Origin: Candidatus Woesearchaeota archaeon
GTDB taxonomy: Archaea; Nanobdellota; Nanobdellia; Pacearchaeales; GW2011-AR1
DNA: 64,000 nucleotides
Assembly (NCBI GenBank): GCA_964606775.1
Contig: CAZSGW010000002.1
Location: 16,129-80,128 of the forward strand
Direction: 5' to 3'
This document shows, one piece after another, positions 29,105-37,437 of this stretch (position 1 is the first letter of the stretch; the number at the start of each line of letters is the position of its first letter). A program made the translations under genes and the position numbers. The notes below the pieces were generated by a model. The model did no database searches and was not told where the DNA came from. It saw only the letters and a list, made by a program, of their open reading frames with translations.

Positions 29105-29242
29105 AGTTATTATTTAAAATATATGTTTAAATATATATTTTGAAACTCTAGAATAAAAACAAAAAAGTTTGAGGCTGAACCAAAATTTACTTCTTTTAAC
29201 CAACTTAAATGCTCAAATTTAAAGGAGTTCGTTAAAAGTCTG

Positions 29243-29482
29243 TTATATTCAATTTTCCTTAACAGGAAAACTTTGCTCAAACATTTTTATAGTTAACTCA
29301 CAACTTTATGGAAGTCGCTCAGATTGACTTCGCTCCATTCTCAAAAAGGAATATAACACTGATTATATTCAATTTTCCTTAACAGGAAAACTTTGCTCAA
29401 ACATTTTTATAGTTAACTCACAACTTTATGGAAGTCGCTCAGATTGACTTCGCTCCATTCTCAAAAAGGAATATAACACTGA
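29243..29482. repeat. perfect tandem duplication, 2 x 120 bp, plus degenerate start of a third copy
   Basis: 29243-29362 identical to 29363-29482; unit contains palindrome GAAGTCgctcagattGACTTC. Confidence 0.95.
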
Positions 29483-29598
29483 TTAGTTTCAATTGCAAAT
29501 TCTCTAAATTGTTGAGTTTGAAAATAGGAGAGGACACTTTAAAACCCCGACCACCCACCCCTGTTAGGAGATGTGTGCTTGGTTTTATCTTCGATAAA

Positions 29599-29627
29599 AC
29601 AGATAGTCAAAACTTTCAGTTTTGAGA
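29599..29627. promoter_or_regulatory. 29-nt motif ACAGATAGTCAAAACTTTCAGTTTTGA with 8-bp palindrome arms (copy 1)
   Basis: identical copy at 34960-34988; each upstream of a + strand membrane/secreted-protein gene. Confidence 0.5.
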
Positions 29628-29800
29628 TTTAATTGAAATAATCTTCCCCCAAAAATTGAAAAAACTTCTTTTATCGGACCAGAAAAATCTCTCGAAATTT
29701 CTTCAAAATTTCGCCTAACAAACGATAAAAGGTTCGCTCTGCTCTCCCAAATTTTTTCAAAAATGAAAAGCTTTTTATATTATGCTTTTTAATATATATT

Positions 29801-31240
29801 ATGAAAAGATTAATGGTGTTAATGAGTGTAGTATTAATTTTTAGTATGGTTAGTTTGGTTTCTGCAGATACTTGTACAGATACAGATGGATTAAATTTAT
29901 ATTCAAAAGGGATGATTTCAGGATACGAAGATGAAAATTATGGAGAGTTTGAAGATAGATGTACTATTAATCCTGGTTCAGATTATACTGTTCTTCAAGA
30001 AGGCTATTGTAAAGAAGATGGAAGTTCTGCAATTTTAACAATTACTTGTTCTAGTGAATGTGTTGAGGGAACATGTGTTGGAGAACAACAAAGTGTACCT
30101 AGTTGTTCTGATTCTGATGGAGGATTAGATTTTTATGAAAAAGGTTCTATATCTGGACCAAAATTTACAGGCAAAGAAGAGGATATTGTGAGTTCAAAAA
30201 CTTATGAGGATAGTTGCACAACTAAAGGAGATATGAATCAATTAGAATATTATTGTGATAGTGGGTTAATTGTTTCAGTAAGTCATTGGTGTCCGCAAGG
30301 GTGTAGTGATGGAGCTTGTTTGCCTGAACCTGTTTGTTATGATTCAGATGGTTTAGACTATTATAATAAAGGGTATACTCAAAAAGATGATGACCCTAAA
30401 ACTTATGATGGATGTAAATCACCACATGACGGGACTCTTTATGAAAGATTTTGTAGGGATGACGGCATTCCGTATATTGAAGATTTTTATTGTGAGTTTG
30501 GTTGTAAGGATGGAGCTTGTTTAGAAGAACCTAGTGAAGAAAATGAAACCTGTGTGGAAACAGATAAAGGTAAGGATAGATATTTGAAGGGTAGAACTTA
30601 TATTGGAAAAGATACTCATACTGATTCTTGTTATCAAGATTCTTTAGTTGAGTATTATTGTTCTTTTGATTTAGAAACTCAAAAAGATTTTATTAAAAAA
30701 GATACTCTTGAGTGTACTCAAGGATGTGAGGATGGAGCATGCGTCCAATTAGAATGTTCTGAAACAGATAATGGGAAAGATGGTTTTGTTAAAGGAACAA
30801 CATGGATTGGAGAAGACACTCACACAGACGCTTGTTATAATAACAATGTTGTTGAGTACTATTGTTCTTTTGATTCTGAATTAGATAAACCTTTTATTAA
30901 AAAAGATGAGATAATTTGTGAAGCGGGATGTGAAGATGGGGCTTGTTTAAATAAAACAATAATAAAACCAGATTTAGATGAAGGTCCAGAAGAAATAAAT
31001 GACTTTAACAAATATTTTTGTTATGGGTGTTTAGTGGAGAAGTCATGTTATCCATTAGGATATAGAAAAGGTGGAGATTATTGTTCTGATGAAAATAATG
31101 AATTTATAGTTCAATTAGAAGCAGAATCTTCTTGCGAAAATAATTTTGAATGTGATAGTAATCTTTGTATAAATGATGAGTGTGTAAGTGGAAGCTTATG
31201 GGCTAAATTTATAAGATGGTTAAGTAAGATTTTTGGTTAA
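29801..31240 (+). CDS. secreted Cys-rich protein with five tandem ~70-aa repeats
   Basis: N-terminal signal/TM, repeats each ending GC(E/S/K)DGAC(L/V); C-terminal WAKFIRWLSKIFG motif. Confidence 0.7.
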   Translation: MKRLMVLMSVVLIFSMVSLVSADTCTDTDGLNLYSKGMISGYEDENYGEFEDRCTINPGSDYTVLQEGYCKEDGSSAILTITCSSECVEGTCVGEQQSVPSCSDSDGGLDFYEKGSISGPKFTGKEEDIVSSKTYEDSCTTKGDMNQLEYYCDSGLIVSVSHWCPQGCSDGACLPEPVCYDSDGLDYYNKGYTQKDDDPKTYDGCKSPHDGTLYERFCRDDGIPYIEDFYCEFGCKDGACLEEPSEENETCVETDKGKDRYLKGRTYIGKDTHTDSCYQDSLVEYYCSFDLETQKDFIKKDTLECTQGCEDGACVQLECSETDNGKDGFVKGTTWIGEDTHTDACYNNNVVEYYCSFDSELDKPFIKKDEIICEAGCEDGACLNKTIIKPDLDEGPEEINDFNKYFCYGCLVEKSCYPLGYRKGGDYCSDENNEFIVQLEAESSCENNFECDSNLCINDECVSGSLWAKFIRWLSKIFG

Positions 31241-31290: not shown

Positions 31291-31750
31291 CAAAAAGACG
31301 CACACATCTCTTATTTAATGGGTTTTACAGACGGAACCCACCGTCCTAAAGTGTCCTCTCTAATTATATGACGAGAATTTGCAACTTTGATTTTTTGCCT
31401 TCGGCATCGTTGCACTAAAAATCAATCCTCACTTTGTTCGGAGAAACTAACAAGAATTCCCAGCGTCGATAAATCGACCAAATTTAAAATTTCATTTTTT
31501 GCCCACCCGACATAGGAGAAAAAAGCCTGCGTCCTTCGGGCAGATAGCTGAAACAAGTTTCAGAGAAAAACTTCTTTTACCCGACCGACGAGAAAACAAA
31601 CAAAATGCTTCGCACTTTGTATAACAAAGGGTAAAAGGTTTCACTCCGTTACACCCAAATTTTTCATTTAACTTGAGGGGTTCTTAGTCCTTCGGACAAA
31701 TTGTCGGCTCACGCCGAAATGATTAAAAGGTTTAAATTTTTTATTTTCTT

Positions 31751-32491
31751 ATGAATGAAAAAACTTCCCAAGAAGAATTGTTTAATTATATTCTTAACTT
31801 AACTCCAATAATTGAAATTGAAGAAGTAAAAAAAGATTTAACAACTTCAATGAAGAGAAGAGAATATATTAAAATAAATGGAAATAAAATTAATTTTTAT
31901 AATCTTAAAGCTCATTTAGATACAATACAAAGAAGAAAATATCTTAATAATTTCTGCCTTTATGAAATATCAAAAGATTGTGATAACAAAGATAATATAA
32001 CTAAAAAAGAAGTAGAATTTTTAGACAAAGAAAAAAATAATTATCTTCCAAACTTTCTTATTCAATGCGAATATTTTTTATTCTCAACAAAAACTATTTT
32101 TGATACAATTCTAAAAATGATAAATTACATTTTTCCAGAGGAATCTCAACCAACATCTTTTAGGAGAATGGAAAATTGGACAGATGAAATAAAAATTAAA
32201 TCTCTGATTTCTAGTAATTGGGATTGGTTTACTAAATTCAATGAATTAAGAAATAGCTTGACTCATGATGCTATTGCTGGAATAACAACACAAATAAAAA
32301 GCAAACCTCAAGAAGGAATAATTAATTATTCGAAGAGAAACCTAAAGATTTGGAATGAAAAAAGACAGGAGGAGGATATACTACAATTGCCCAATTATTT
32401 TGAAGAATGTTTTTCAAAAACTAAACAATTCATAAATAATTTTTATGAACTTTTACTAAAACAGAAAATAGAAGGAAATTCTATTTCTTGA
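31751..32491 (+). CDS. hypothetical protein (possible HEPN-like Rx4H motif)
   Basis: 246 aa; ELRNSLTHD motif. Confidence 0.45.
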   Translation: MNEKTSQEELFNYILNLTPIIEIEEVKKDLTTSMKRREYIKINGNKINFYNLKAHLDTIQRRKYLNNFCLYEISKDCDNKDNITKKEVEFLDKEKNNYLPNFLIQCEYFLFSTKTIFDTILKMINYIFPEESQPTSFRRMENWTDEIKIKSLISSNWDWFTKFNELRNSLTHDAIAGITTQIKSKPQEGIINYSKRNLKIWNEKRQEEDILQLPNYFEECFSKTKQFINNFYELLLKQKIEGNSIS

Positions 32492-32753
32492 TTAATTCTT
32501 TTGCGACCTTTTCACCTTCTTTTGTCCTCTTGTAAATCCTTCCCGTTCTATCTTCAGGATTTACAACTTCAACAAGTTTTTTATCTCTCAATTCAGATAA
32601 AGCACGAGAAACAAGATTAAAATAAGTGTTGCTGTTACTTTTGTAAATTTTCATAACTAATTCCGAAGGCATCATAGGTTTATCCAAATTCATAAAAACT
32701 TCTTTTCTATTTTTGCCTCTCTTTACAAAACCTATGGCTTTTAGCAATTCCAT
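32481..32753 (-). CDS. small winged-helix transcriptional regulator
   Basis: 90 aa wHTH-like. Confidence 0.5.
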   Translation of the reverse strand: MELLKAIGFVKRGKNRKEVFMNLDKPMMPSELVMKIYKSNSNTYFNLVSRALSELRDKKLVEVVNPEDRTGRIYKRTKEGEKVAKELIKK

Positions 32754-33425: not shown

Positions 33426-33645
33426 TTCTGAAAACTTCTTTTAGAAAAAGAAGGCAAAATAAGAACCCCTCATTTTCTTTTTTAGAAAAAAAGAAACAAA
33501 AAAGGGCAGGCTTTTTTCTCTAATTATTTGGTCGTCGGAAACAACCATCCTCCTCCCCCACCCTAAAATGAAATTTTAAACTCACGAGGAAACTTTTTGT
33601 TTCAGCTCGTGCCCTTCGGGTCTGGGAACAGCAGATTAATTGCAA

Positions 33646-33820
33646 TTCTAAAACCTGCCTTTCTCGACGAGAAAGTAACCATAAATCCTAAAAGTTGTCG
33701 CCTTCGTTAAACGGACAAACGAGGAGAAAAAAAGAAATGCTTCGCACTTTCTTATAACAATCGTTTAACGGTTCGCTTCGCTCTCCCAAATTTTTTCTTG
33801 ATTGAAAGTTGGGGGGCTAA
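33646..33820. repeat. left arm of long imperfect inverted repeat
   Basis: TTCTAAAACCTGCC...AGTTGTCGCC...TTTTTTCTTGATTGAAAGTTGGGGGGCTAA matches rc of 34724-34830. Confidence 0.8.
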
Positions 33821-33822
33821 AA

Positions 33823-34059
33823 CTATTTTTTCCCAGACAGCCAAGAATTAATATGTTCTCTAACTTTTTTATTTGTGGCATAAAGAAAAATTCCTCCCAA
33901 TCCCACAATTACAGAACCAACATACGCAGGAACATCACCAATCAAAGATTTAATCACAAGAAAAACAACAACAATCATTATTGCTGCGACAATGATCAAT
34001 TTTCCTAAATCCAAAATGTCTTCTGTTAATTGTCTTGTTTCTCTGCTCATGTTAACCAA
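33823..34059 (-). CDS. small two-TM membrane protein
   Basis: 78 aa, hydrophobic core. Confidence 0.5.
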   Translation of the reverse strand: MVNMSRETRQLTEDILDLGKLIIVAAIMIVVVFLVIKSLIGDVPAYVGSVIVGLGGIFLYATNKKVREHINSWLSGKK

Positions 34060-34681
34060 ATACCTTTTTTAAGAATCCTTTTTTCTTAGGGGTAATTTTA
34101 GGCATACCATTCTCTTCCATTATCTTAATAACTGCTTCTGCCTGTGCTTTTGCCTCTTCTCCAATAAAGAGTTTTCCCAATTCGTTTATTTTTTCTTCAT
34201 ACCATTTACGTAAAGAAACGCCAAAAGCTTTCTTAGATAAATTTGGATTTTCAATTTCCATCTTTATTAATTTTTTTAATTCAACATCAATAAAAAATAC
34301 TTCTGCATAAACTATGTTAATCCTGTCTTTTTTATCTTCTCCTTTGTATGGAGTCCAAGAAATTGAAACTCTTTCGGGCAATTCATCCATTCTTCCAGCA
34401 TAAATCACATCTCTTAATATTGAAATTGCAAACCCATCAATTAAATCTCTTTTGTCCCTTAATTCTTCAGGACTACATTTCTTTCCTTTTGGGATTACTT
34501 TTATTTCAAACATCCTACTTCCTTCTTCGTTAATATGTCCTTTTTTATCTACATCTACATCCCAACCTAATTCCTCTGAATAATGGGATAATTCTTTTTT
34601 AGCATTAACAATCCCACTAGAAGTAGCACTAATTGTAAAATAGGTTTCAATCCATTTATAATTCTCTAAATCTTCTGCCAT
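34052..34681 (-). CDS. hypothetical protein
   Basis: 209-aa ORF overlapping downstream small membrane-protein gene. Confidence 0.5.
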   Translation of the reverse strand: MAEDLENYKWIETYFTISATSSGIVNAKKELSHYSEELGWDVDVDKKGHINEEGSRMFEIKVIPKGKKCSPEELRDKRDLIDGFAISILRDVIYAGRMDELPERVSISWTPYKGEDKKDRINIVYAEVFFIDVELKKLIKMEIENPNLSKKAFGVSLRKWYEEKINELGKLFIGEEAKAQAEAVIKIMEENGMPKITPKKKGFLKKVFG

Positions 34682-34723
34682 ATTATATAGATTAGAGAGA
34701 ACATATTTATAAAATTATCTATC

Positions 34724-34830
34724 TTAGCCCCCCAACTTTGTCTTTCAGACATTTAGTCTGCCTACGGCAGAGATATATAAAATCAAGAAAAAACTACGGC
34801 GACAACTGGATTTACGGCAGGTTTTAGAAC
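34724..34830. repeat. right arm of inverted repeat (shorter, deleted version of left arm)
   Basis: TTAGCCCCCCAACTT...GGCGACAACT...GGCAGGTTTTAGAA. Confidence 0.8.
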
Positions 34831-34959
34831 TTCTTCGGAAAACTTCGTTTTCCTCGACCACGCTGCGCTCTCGCCTTCGGCTCGGGGCAATTAACAGCGA
34901 TTATATTCAATCGTCGTGTAGATTTATTAAAAGGGGATTGCCGCCTTAGTCCCTTTGGG

Positions 34960-34988
34960 ACAGATAGTCAAAACTTTCAGTTTTGAAG
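34960..34988. promoter_or_regulatory. 29-nt palindromic motif copy 2
   Basis: identical to 29599-29627. Confidence 0.5.
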
Positions 34989-35035
34989 ATTTATTTACAA
35001 AGATTTTTATATCTCCATTTATATTTATATTCATA

Positions 35036-35515
35036 ATGGCAAGACATTATGATGACGGATATGAAATGTATGTTCCAGGAAAAAAGAAACATCATTCACA
35101 TCACTATTCCTCAAGAGGACATTTGAACTTTAAAAATTTCCTTAGAAGATATGTTTATTTTAGAATTCAAAATGATGTTGAACCCCATCTAAAACAATTT
35201 GGCATAATATTTATTATTGGACTTGTTTTGAATTATGTATATTATCAAACTCTTTCATTAAGATACCTCTTTATTGGAGGAGTAAATGAATGGTTTAATG
35301 TTCTAATGCCAACATTAAATTATGGTTTTGGGACAGGTTATAATTTATTTTATCTGATTATTAACGGAATTTTTTATGCCTATTTTTATTATAGTTTTAT
35401 ATTAGTTATTTACAATACGATAACTAATTTAGATGATAGAGATACATGGGTTATGATTGGATGGTTTGCATTAATAATATGGATAATAACAAAGATATTT
35501 CCGCAAATAATATAA
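35036..35515 (+). CDS. membrane protein, His-rich N-terminus (start placed at internal ATG)
   Basis: TATA-like ATTTATATTTATAT ~20 nt upstream of ATG 35036; ORF-track start 34955 would read through the conserved palindromic motif. Confidence 0.45.
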   Translation: MARHYDDGYEMYVPGKKKHHSHHYSSRGHLNFKNFLRRYVYFRIQNDVEPHLKQFGIIFIIGLVLNYVYYQTLSLRYLFIGGVNEWFNVLMPTLNYGFGTGYNLFYLIINGIFYAYFYYSFILVIYNTITNLDDRDTWVMIGWFALIIWIITKIFPQII

Positions 35516-36414: not shown

Positions 36415-36633
36415 AAATCTAATTCTAATTTTCTTTTTTAAAAAAAAGAAACAAAAAAGGCGGCGGCAATCCCCAGAAAAAAAACTATACACACGACGAC
36501 TTTGAGTTTTCCCTTCGGGACGTTGCACTAAAACTCAATCCCTAACGGGAGAATATAACAAGGATTACATTCAATTTCTTCACTCCATTTAACAGCACAA
36601 AAGCAATAAAAACCCTCGACTCTTCACTCTTAA

Positions 36634-37437
36634 ATGGAAAAAGAAGTGAAACCAAATATAAAACAAGAACAAATTCACGACATTCTTTTCAATCGTGAAA
36701 TAGGTTGGCAAGAAATAATCTATGATTTAATCAACACTGAACAACTTGATCCTTGGGACGTAAATATTTCAATACTCGCCGAAAAGTATTTGGAAAAAAT
36801 AAAGGAACTTGAAGAGGCAGATTTCTTCGTATCTTCAAAAGTACTCCTCGCAGCTTCACTTTTACTAAGAATTAAATCCGAAATACTTCTAAACAAATAT
36901 ATCAAATCAATAGACGAAATACTTTTCGGAAAAGAAGAAAAAAAGAAATACGAAATGGAAAGGATAGAACTAGATGAACAAATACCCGAGCTAATACCAC
37001 GAAGCCCAATGCCCAGATTCAAAAAAGTTACTTTAAAAGAATTGATGGAGTCCCTAAATAAAGCAATATCAACAGAAAATAGAAGGATAAAAAAAGAAAT
37101 AATCAAGAAAAACGCATTAAGGGAATCCTCAATCTCTCTTCCAAAGAAAAATACAAGCATAAAAGACAAAATAAAAATAATCTACGAGAAAATAACAGGA
37201 CATTTTCTAAATAGCAAGACCCACAAAAAAGTACCTTATTCTCATTTGACTGGAGAAAAAAGAGAAGAAAGGATACACTCTTTCGGACCTTTACTACAAT
37301 TAGAAAACCAAAAGAAACTCTGGTTACATCAAGAAAATCACTTCGAAGAAATCCACATCTGGGAAAGAAAATCTTTTTGGAAACACAAAGGAGACCCTTT
37401 TGCAGATTTGCGTGAAGAGGAAGTTAAAAAAGAATAA
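36634..37437 (+). CDS. ScpA-like kleisin (segregation and condensation protein A), tentative
   Basis: N-terminal ...EQLDPWDVNISILAEKYLEKIKEL resembles ScpA N-terminal motif; 267 aa. Confidence 0.45.
   Translation: MEKEVKPNIKQEQIHDILFNREIGWQEIIYDLINTEQLDPWDVNISILAEKYLEKIKELEEADFFVSSKVLLAASLLLRIKSEILLNKYIKSIDEILFGKEEKKKYEMERIELDEQIPELIPRSPMPRFKKVTLKELMESLNKAISTENRRIKKEIIKKNALRESSISLPKKNTSIKDKIKIIYEKITGHFLNSKTHKKVPYSHLTGEKREERIHSFGPLLQLENQKKLWLHQENHFEEIHIWERKSFWKHKGDPFADLREEEVKKE

Follow-up and report, generated by a model that had tools for sequence, protein, structure and literature searches.

The window analyzed here is a 64,000-nucleotide stretch of a DPANN (Woese-/Pacearchaeota) chromosome that is AT-rich (32% GC) and carries archaeal genes, including those for S24e, an Rpb7-like subunit, diphthamide synthase and ScpA. 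Between approximately 29.1 and 36.6 kb, it contains an array of gene cassettes whose intergenic regions have recurring motifs in common, and one of these units (hereafter cassette C) comprises a pair of genes enclosed by long imperfect inverted repeats. What kind of element is this module? An initial sequence-only reading proposed an invertible or mobile segment that a nearby tyrosine recombinase could flip or excise, resulting in phase variation or module shuffling, or, alternatively, a small mobile element bounded by terminal inverted repeats (TIRs). The module is neither a TIR transposon nor a demonstrated phase switch. Rather, comparison with related loci (denoted by L numbers) suggests that it is probably one cassette of an integron-like array attached to a xerA/dif module in the DPANN chromosome, with a cargo that is invertible on the evolutionary scale.

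The inverted repeats are real and more extensive than originally described. Each of the four shared motifs that were noticed at the outset (blocks A to D in the table) has one copy per side, the two copies being exact reverse complements, and the order of the blocks does not differ between the arms; two further blocks, TAAATCC and the outermost block O, extend the inverted repeat to 33636-34894. Gapped local alignment of one arm with the other, reverse-complemented arm yields a score of 92.6, compared to 50.9 +/- 5.9 (maximum, 67.7) for 300 shuffles, that is, about 7 SD. The description of the right arm as a shortened version of the left one is only half of the picture: the right arm does lack a 16-nt hairpin and the element X of about 98 nt, in place of which it has GTAG, but C and D are separated in it by a private 41-nt insertion with two hairpins, and GC-rich hairpins that span about 57 nt lie between A' and the outermost block. 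All the private insertions between the blocks of both arms are hairpins.

Features of the cassette array, with positions in the window; matched ends and inverted blocks of the other cassettes are listed at the bottom
Feature	Position	Strand	Details
XerA-family tyrosine recombinase gene, 278 aa	28268..29104	-	divergent from the cassette array; Pfam Phage_integrase and SAM_4
Recombinase-proximal, attI-like site	29226..29253	+	CGTTAAAAGTCTG followed by TTATATTCAAT; relatives' homology upstream of the recombinase gene ends at 29244
Two tandem 120-bp cargo-less units	29243..29482	+	each ends in a dif-like site (29347-29373, 29467-29493)
Junction site s4	33619..33646	+	left arm CTGGGAA (cassette B end), spacer CAGCAGA, right arm TTAATTGCAAT (cassette C start)
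Left ("long") arm	33636..33820	+	O 33636-43, A 33646-59, hairpin 33660-75, TAAATCC 33682-88, B 33693-702, X 33702-99, C 33791-803, D 33805-20
Block O, outermost	33636 and 34887		TTAATTGC/GCAATTAA
Block A	33646 and 34816(-)		TTCTAAAACCTGCC
Block TAAATCC	33682 and 34808
Block B	33693 and 34798(-)		AGTTGTCGCC
Block C	33791 and 34781(-)		TTTTTTCTTGATT
Block D, innermost	33805 and 34724(-)		AAAGTTGGGGGGCTAA; 16 bp
X element	33702..33799	+	conserved two-level hairpin with an oligo-T end; replaced by GTAG in the right arm
Cargo segment, 903 bp	33821..34723	-	TATA box, 209-aa gene, 75-aa gene
75-aa two-TM protein gene	33823..34050	-	78 aa with TTG at 34059
209-aa protein gene	34052..34681	-
TATA box	34704..34713	-	TTTATAAATA; 22 nt upstream of ATG, within the invertible segment; read from the sequence
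Right ("short") arm	34724..34894	-	D' 34724-39, two-hairpin insertion 34740-80, C' 34781-93, CTAC, B' 34798-807, GGATTTA 34808-14, A' 34816-29, hairpins 34830-86, O' 34887-94
Junction site s5	34885..34911	+	left arm GGGCAATTAA (cassette C end), spacer CAGCGA, right arm TTATATTCAAT (cassette D start)
Last dif-like site, s6	36549..36575	+	chromosomal scpA gene next
Matched ends, 120-bp units			start TTATATTC, end GAATATAA
Matched ends, cassette A			start TTAGTTTC, end GAAACTAA
Matched ends, cassette B			start TTCCCAG, end CTGGGAA
Matched ends, cassette C			start TTAATTGC, end GCAATTAA
Matched ends, cassette D			start TTATATTC, end GAATATAA
Inverted blocks, cassette A			12/12, 14/14, 13/14, 11/11
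Inverted blocks, cassette B			16/16, 15/16, 14/15
Inverted blocks, cassette D			8/8, 13/13

Such arms are not peculiar to cassette C. Collinear, cassette-specific inverted blocks flank the cargo in all four cassettes of the window and in about half of those at other loci; the end-to-end complementarity reaches 35-190 nt inward, and the blocks are broken by hairpin insertions. These comparisons show that the arms noticed at first are cassette C's version of a general complementarity of cassette ends. In L012, the left and right arms are 98.9% and 94.4% identical, respectively, to those in the window, compared with 79.8% for the 209-aa gene; in L002, all six arm blocks differ in sequence from their counterparts in the window, and yet the blocks are complementary within each genome. 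Given that the blocks diverge between genomes whereas complementarity is kept, the arms are constrained as a pair, which suggests that they either would act in a folded form (hairpin or cruciform), like attC and the attP of CTX, or could be homogenized by recombination between the two halves. The reconstructed junction of a cassette C circle (about 400 nt, single-stranded DNA) folds at -81 to -86 kcal/mol, compared to -35 +/- 4.5 kcal/mol for shuffles, whereas the real junctions of the integrated cassette C fold at -47 to -49 kcal/mol only.

The key recurring motif of the array is a dif-like site. Alignment of 31 such sites of 26-28 bp gives the consensus left arm GGGAAYWTAA, spacer CANNGA and right arm TTAWRTTCAAT, that is, the 11-6-11 layout typical of dif, with two inverted arms of about 10-11 bp around a 6-bp spacer; in the same alignment, a cassette-specific hairpin precedes the site. 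The motif TAACANNGATTANNTTCAAT has four exact matches in the window, compared with 0.01 expected, all of them on the plus strand and inside the array. Some of the sites are irregular, namely s4, with a 7-nt spacer, and s3b, with a degenerate right arm. Linkage of archaeal xerA genes with their own dif site is already known (PMC5357621, PMC11840125), and the verified dif of Thermococcus kodakarensis, TTTTGATATAA-TGTACC-TTATATGACAA (PMC11840125), shares the inner arm bases ATATAA/TTATAT with the window site GGAATATAA-CACTGA-TTATATTCAAT.

The same arrangement recurs in the relatives of this archaeon. At least 10 related MAGs repeat the layout in which a recombinase gene is accompanied by an array, and the order and content of the array vary between relatives. 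In L031, 11 sites on the same strand, including those of 111-bp tandem units, are located directly upstream of, and divergent from, the recombinase gene; several same-strand sites are found upstream of this gene in L023, L021, L035 and L041, and a single site in L026, L028, L029 and L024, and the motif likewise lies upstream of the gene in L012. In the window, L031, L023, L021, L035, L041 and L024, the array adjoins and diverges from the recombinase gene, as is typical of integrons. The homology upstream of the recombinase gene in L012, L022 and L024 runs up to position 29244 of the window and then breaks down (the L029 alignment covers 29115-29163 only, the upstream flank of this locus being short). 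The tandem 120-bp units that follow in the window form a 132-nt direct repeat with 98.5% identity.

Comparison of the window with L012 delineates cassette C, which extends from about 33636 to 34900. The edges of homology fall between G(A) and TTAATTGC on one side and after TTCAAT on the other side, that is, exactly at s4 and within s5, an exact match to the array motif; the right arm of s4 is the reverse complement of the left arm of s5. In L012, cassette C occupies the recombinase-proximal junction itself, with AAAGTCTG joined directly to TTAATTGCAATTC. In the window, AAAGTCTG is followed at this junction by TTATATTCAAT, and TTAATTGCAATTC is found, preceded by CAGCAGA, 4.4 kb further; accordingly, the window has 4.4 kb of extra sequence between the recombinase-proximal site and cassette C. 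The insertion breakpoints between related genomes are located in or beside the spacer. The proposal that the module is mobile stands to the extent that the cassette is bounded by direct dif-like sites and its position relative to the recombinase gene differs between L012 and the window.

Another regularity in the array concerns the cassette ends. In each cassette of the window, the start arm is the reverse complement of the end arm, and this rule also applies to L002 (TTATGCTC/GAGCATAA), L012, L035 and L041, whereas the two arms inside one junction site often mismatch, with 2-7 of 8 positions in agreement. Overall, the arms match at 7.1 of 10 positions when paired by cassette versus 6.25 of 10 when paired within their own site, a difference that is modest outside the window; L031 is uninformative in this respect because most of its left arms are identical. 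Given that every cassette opens with the reverse complement of its own closing arm, the junction sites are hybrids of neighboring cassettes, and the inserted elements are flanked by direct dif-like sites with hybrid arms, as in integrative mobile elements exploiting Xer (IMEX). The combination of matched cassette ends with mismatched arms within sites implies a crossover in the spacer and one near-palindromic site per cassette. Matched ends of this kind are the apparent signature of once-circular units that were integrated by site-specific recombination.

A plausible enzyme for the integration and excision of cassettes is encoded next to the array. The product of the recombinase gene passes the cutoff of the XerA_Arch equivalog model of NCBIfam (NF040815; 228.5 bits, cutoff 220), and its matches in PDB include IntI4, in two stretches, and XerA (5hxy and 4a8e; E-values of 1e-40 to 1e-42). 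The scores against the integron integrase models TIGR02249 (212, below the cutoff of 265) and PRK15417 (135, below the cutoff of 435) come from two stretches each, the best of which cover query residues 11-187 and 19-175, respectively. Because these models match in two pieces and below their cutoffs, the recombinase lacks the additional domain that is specific to IntI; the integron integrases are proteins of about 320 aa that contain this domain, whereas the 278-aa protein of the window scores as XerA. The nearest relatives of the recombinase in GTDB genomes belong to MAGs of Woesearchaeota, Pacearchaeota and Nanoarchaeota; the protein encoded in L012 is 77% identical to that of the window, and the one next to the L002 module, which is encoded in the opposite direction, is only 41% identical. 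Among the 22 contigs with the closest recombinases, 17 stop less than 5 kb upstream of the gene and 8 stop less than 250 bp upstream, as would be expected if assembly were disrupted by a repeat-rich array that varies between strains.

Taken together, these features fit the following scheme. Cassettes would be excised as circles, each carrying one near-palindromic dif-like site, and XerA-type strand exchange within the spacer would then insert the circles anew. Integration would split the long imperfect palindrome of the cassette, so that its halves come to flank the cargo, and the innermost repeats, D, would be the place where the cargo is flipped or exchanged. Integration and excision at dif-like sites by a XerA-type enzyme is the best-supported step of this scheme and a plausible one. 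The recombinase may also be a plain housekeeping XerA, in which case the array would have arisen by passive build-up of elements at dif.

The proposal that the module is invertible is borne out at the evolutionary level. In L011 and L002, the 903-bp cargo segment is flipped relative to both arms. In blastn comparisons, positions 384-502 of L011 correspond to 33699-33820 of the window on the plus strand, positions 489-1422 to 34738-33806 on the minus strand, and positions 1408-1498 to 34724-34814 on the plus strand again; the strand switches fall into overlaps of 14-15 nt that represent the D block, and L002 follows the same pattern. Both breakpoints, therefore, lie inside the innermost 13-16-bp perfect repeat D, the left copy of which is 33805-33820. 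In the flipped loci, the genes are accompanied by the TATA box and by the inner bases beside D, and neither X nor the C-D insertion has moved. The cargo is inverted in two of the four related loci: its direction is opposite to that of the array in the window and L012 but coincides with it in L011 and L002. In the window, L012 and L002, the recombinase-proximal side is taken by the long arm, which contains X, and the distal side by the short arm (the L011 contig is too short to place the recombinase gene). Considering these orientations along with the nucleotide similarity of the cargo to that of the window, which is 93.8% in L011, about 80% in L012 and about 76% in L002, at least two independent flips are required. 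The cargo also recombines as a unit, given that the arms of the window are closest to those of L012 and the 209-aa gene is closest to that of L011. In L023, four of the five cargo open reading frames (ORFs) point against the array, which indicates that cargo orientation is generally free in these arrays.

The question, then, is whether cassette C is a phase-variable inverton, in which a linked tyrosine recombinase would frequently flip the segment within the population and switch expression, in the manner of fimS or the invertible promoters of Bacteroides. Perfect 16-bp inverted repeats at the exact breakpoints, the occurrence of both orientations in relatives with up to 95% protein identity (L011), the repeated flips, and the linkage to a tyrosine recombinase gene in the window, L012 and L002 all fit this explanation; both orientations are seen between genomes only. 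However, the segment that is flipped encompasses the TATA box and the whole operon, so that the promoter remains joined to its genes and inversion is not a simple on/off switch; the phase variation suggested in the sequence-only reading does not fit the classic scheme of promoter inversion. The Logan contig L001, from the one sample in which the identical sequence is present (SRR15425353), is 100% identical to 33772-34812 of the window, and the k=31 assembly of this data set passes both D blocks, by 33 and 73 nt, with no branch that would betray a mixture of orientations. Furthermore, D (GGGGGGCTAA) falls short of a complete dif-like site with two arms, its resemblance being to the left arm of the core site only (GGG...YTAA); the recombinase, encoded 4.7 kb away in the window, belongs to the XerA type, that of dimer resolution, and its recognizable sites are direct repeats rather than D. 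With this evidence, a phase-variable inverton appears unlikely. The inversions might be due to the XerA-like recombinase or to recombination between the arms by host pathways, either homologous or replicative (template switching).

Under another explanation, the arms would be cis-regulatory or RNA elements (insulators, terminators or small RNAs) that chanced to be duplicated in inverted orientation. Inversions would then arise now and then as a side effect of homologous or replicative recombination between them, and the arms would have no function dedicated to recombination. The arms are indeed better conserved than the coding sequence, and the X hairpin, with its oligo-T end directly upstream of the cargo promoters, is supported by covariation: eight copies from five loci retain full (100%) pairing of the 10-bp outer stem, with compensatory changes in 6 pairs, a level of pairing and covariation that was reached by none of the 500 shuffles. 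Another element, F, has a 29-nt core that is identical in distant genomes. A purely regulatory role leaves unexplained why the outermost blocks are arms of recombination sites, why the start and end arms covary, and why blocks that diverge between genomes stay complementary. In addition, a search of Rfam with gathering and E-value thresholds recovered tRNAs and sub-threshold chance matches only, with no family at the arms, and each arm folded alone as RNA is no better than shuffles (z = -0.1 to -1.5), with no convincing stand-alone structured RNA. We consider this explanation quite improbable. Finally, a TIR transposon or MITE-like element inserted into the array, which would account for the long imperfect inverted repeats at both ends and for the presence of the gene pair without the arms elsewhere, can be dismissed as extremely improbable, given that there is no target-site duplication outside the repeats, no transposase-like protein, and only a single copy in the window.

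The cargo itself offers few functional clues. The reported overlap between the two ORFs is an artefact of the TTG start; with the ATG at 34050, the start that all the homologues use, the smaller gene encodes 75 aa and starts 1 nt past the stop of the 209-aa gene. The homologous loci L002, L004, L011-L014, L100 and L101 likewise carry a gene for a protein of 74-76 aa downstream of the 209-aa homolog, and L018 has a matching 75-aa ORF. Nor are these the only minus-strand genes in the array, as had been stated: an ORF for a 90-aa wHTH protein at 32481-32753 is in the same orientation. The TATA box is retained in L011, L012, L013 and L002 and moves with the genes. The 209-aa protein has only nine detectable homologues (about 79% identity for that of L012) and a confident structure model with a generic ferredoxin-like fold. 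Searches for protein families, defense systems and phage families gave no match for this or the other cargo proteins, and scanning of genome contigs and viral contigs with the 209-aa family gave none either.

The gene pair is also found without the arms, in L004, L013, L016-L018, L100 and L101; L100, L101 and L016-L018 therefore add no data on orientation. The conserved arm pair of cassette B (frame B) is present in L023 and L024, and frame D in L021, with cargo that has no detectable homology to that of the window; in L023, frame B encloses a gene for a 273-aa protein with a HExxH-type motif (as read from the L023 sequence).

How does this system compare with those already described? The resemblance to integrons, including the archaeal integrons (Ghaly et al. 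2022, PMC9668308), is extensive: a recombinase gene diverges from an array of short, mostly ORFan cassettes with a single site orientation, the insertion point is recombinase-proximal, cassette order and content differ between relatives, some units are cargo-less, and each cassette has its own imperfect palindrome, the halves of which covary and the sequence of which differs between cassettes. There are dissimilarities as well. The cargo has its own promoter and can occur in either orientation. The attC sites of integrons are imperfect palindromes of 57-141 nt, R''(RYYYAAC)...R'(GTTRRRY), that are recombined between G and TT of R'. In attC, 50-140 nt separate the R'' box from the R' box and recombination takes place at one end, whereas the 28-bp dif-type sites of the window have arms of 10 bp that are 6 bp apart, with the crossover in or beside the spacer; it is this crossover at the center of the palindrome that, unlike the case of attC, leaves its halves on both sides of the cargo. 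The X hairpin was considered as a candidate attC and rejected: only in some of the copies does GTTAAAC...GTTTAAC match the R boxes, and the position of X is away from the cassette boundaries.

With IMEX, the array shares a housekeeping-type Xer recombinase, direct dif-like sites with hybrid arms and the stacking of elements at one locus; the CTX-type elements use a folded palindromic attP of about 150 nt. However, IMEX are phages, plasmids and islands that range in size from several kb to 57 kb and bring along genes for replication or transfer, whereas the units in the window, which belong to an archaeon, measure 0.1-2 kb and consist of one to three ORFan genes between long complementary arms that are specific to each cassette; no archaeal IMEX appears in the 2017 review or in the literature searched. 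The pdif modules of Acinetobacter plasmids are also small, bounded by Xer sites and shuffled between replicons in both orientations, with Xer-mediated inversions reported (PMC9947245, PMC13141974). The flanks of these modules are XerC/D and XerD/C sites in opposite orientations, whereas all sites of the array are on one strand, as direct repeats, and inversion occurs at a separate inner repeat. The classic inversion switches (fimS/FimBE, Bacteroides invertons and the R64 shufflon/Rci) similarly involve perfect inverted repeats of 13-16 bp at the breakpoints and a nearby tyrosine recombinase gene, but the flipped segment of the window holds a complete promoter and operon, and its repeats are unlike the full sites of the recombinase. 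The system thus resembles both an integron and an IMEX stack at dif and is a member of neither as defined, given that the IntI domain and the attC geometry are lacking and that the units are not phages or islands but very small ORFan cassettes.

A literature search, which was not exhaustive, for archaeal IMEX, integron-like Xer arrays and DPANN cassettes yielded no prior description; archaeal integrons with IntI and attC were found (PMC9668308), and a XerA-linked cassette array was not. We therefore put forward, as a proposition that could be either right or wrong with about equal reason, that Woese- and Pacearchaeota among the DPANN possess a hitherto undescribed integron-like platform for gene capture that is run by XerA and dif instead of IntI and attC. 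The near-palindromic dif-like site that each cassette carries, embedded in a long, covarying, hairpin-forming attachment region, would be the functional analogue of attC, and integration at its center would leave the two halves flanking a cargo open to flipping or exchange at the innermost repeats.

If this proposition is correct, a housekeeping Xer recombinase and dif would have been turned into a platform for cassette capture and shuffling in ultra-small archaea, in parallel to the integrons of bacteria. Covarying palindromic attachment regions, ORFan cargo and cargo-less units would then characterize a second, independent route to modular gene acquisition, and the hypervariable, assembly-breaking locus in DPANN genomes would be accounted for. 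The array would also yield a concrete pair of a 28-bp site and a protein that is open to in vitro work and would bear on the evolution of attC-like, structure-dependent sites from dif.

The frames of the array, the conserved arm pairs around cassette cargo, recur in other genomes with other contents. Homologues of the cassette B and cassette D frames of the window, retaining both arms, were found in three related loci (see the table); their cargo differs in length from the window cargo, with no detectable homology to it, and their array rank differs, the frame of L024 being the first.

Two non-coding elements likewise recur, within the window and in related loci. The X element, about 95 nt long, forms a two-level hairpin whose 10-bp outer stem is backed by covariation (6 compensatory pairs), with a conserved YTAACAA in the internal loop and an oligo-T tail; in every case, the cargo promoter lies downstream of it. 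Candidate identities for the X element are an insulator or terminator, a small RNA, and a DNA-level structure. The F element directly precedes the left arm at several dif-like sites, and its 29-nt core, TTTTTGCCTTCGGCATCGTTGCACTAAAA, shows 100% identity across genomes whose recombinases share just 41-78%; the element may serve as an accessory sequence or as a binding site.

Features of the cassette array and of related loci in other genomes
Feature	Locus	Positions
X element	window	29665-29760, 31571-31666, 33702-33799
X element	L002, L011, L023, L024, L066	
F element	window	31384-31460, 36499-36565
F element	L002	10977-11005
F element	L021, L017, L081	
Frame	L023	5461-4129
Frame	L024	2694-161
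Frame	L021	5328-3793
D-block G/C run	window	33811-33816, 34728-34733
Left-arm replacement	L011	290-384
120-bp units	window	29243-29494
65-aa ORF	window	29428-29625
Repeat in 479-aa protein	window	30557-30703, 30761-30907
186-aa ORF	window	34955-35515
scpA	window	36634-37437
Recombinase gene	L002	8902-9735

The arms of cassette C themselves vary. The G/C run of the D block, the innermost arm repeat, is a homopolymer of variable length sited at the inversion breakpoint, with 6 bases in the window versus 5 in the related loci L011 and L012. In L011, other sequence replaces the outer left arm (blocks O and A, the hairpin and block B) as far as the left edge of X, where the breakpoint lies, and B' is still present in the right arm; this adds to the signs of mosaic recombination in the arms.

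Among the other window cassettes, a 479-aa cargo protein contains an internal repeat of about 147 nt (74% nucleotide identity), and the 186-aa ORF opens with a TTG inside conserved non-coding arm sequence, its true start likely being the ATG at 35036 (159 aa). Adjoining the recombinase gene are 2.1 copies of a 120-bp unit that lacks an ORF and is bounded by dif-like sites; these, and four 111-bp units at the same position in L031, look like cargo-less cassettes. The called 65-aa ORF spanning the 120-bp units is probably spurious.

The recombinase beside the L002 module copy, just 41% identical to that of the window, represents a second type of recombinase or a second arrangement: its gene is co-directional with the array and ends about 40 nt ahead of an attI-like site, GCGTAAAAG-CAGTAG-TTATGCTCAAT.

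Immediately after the last dif-like site of the window lies scpA, encoding the kleisin of Smc-ScpAB. Because dif regions of euryarchaea are Smc-ScpAB domain boundaries (PMC11840125), this adjacency may not be accidental.
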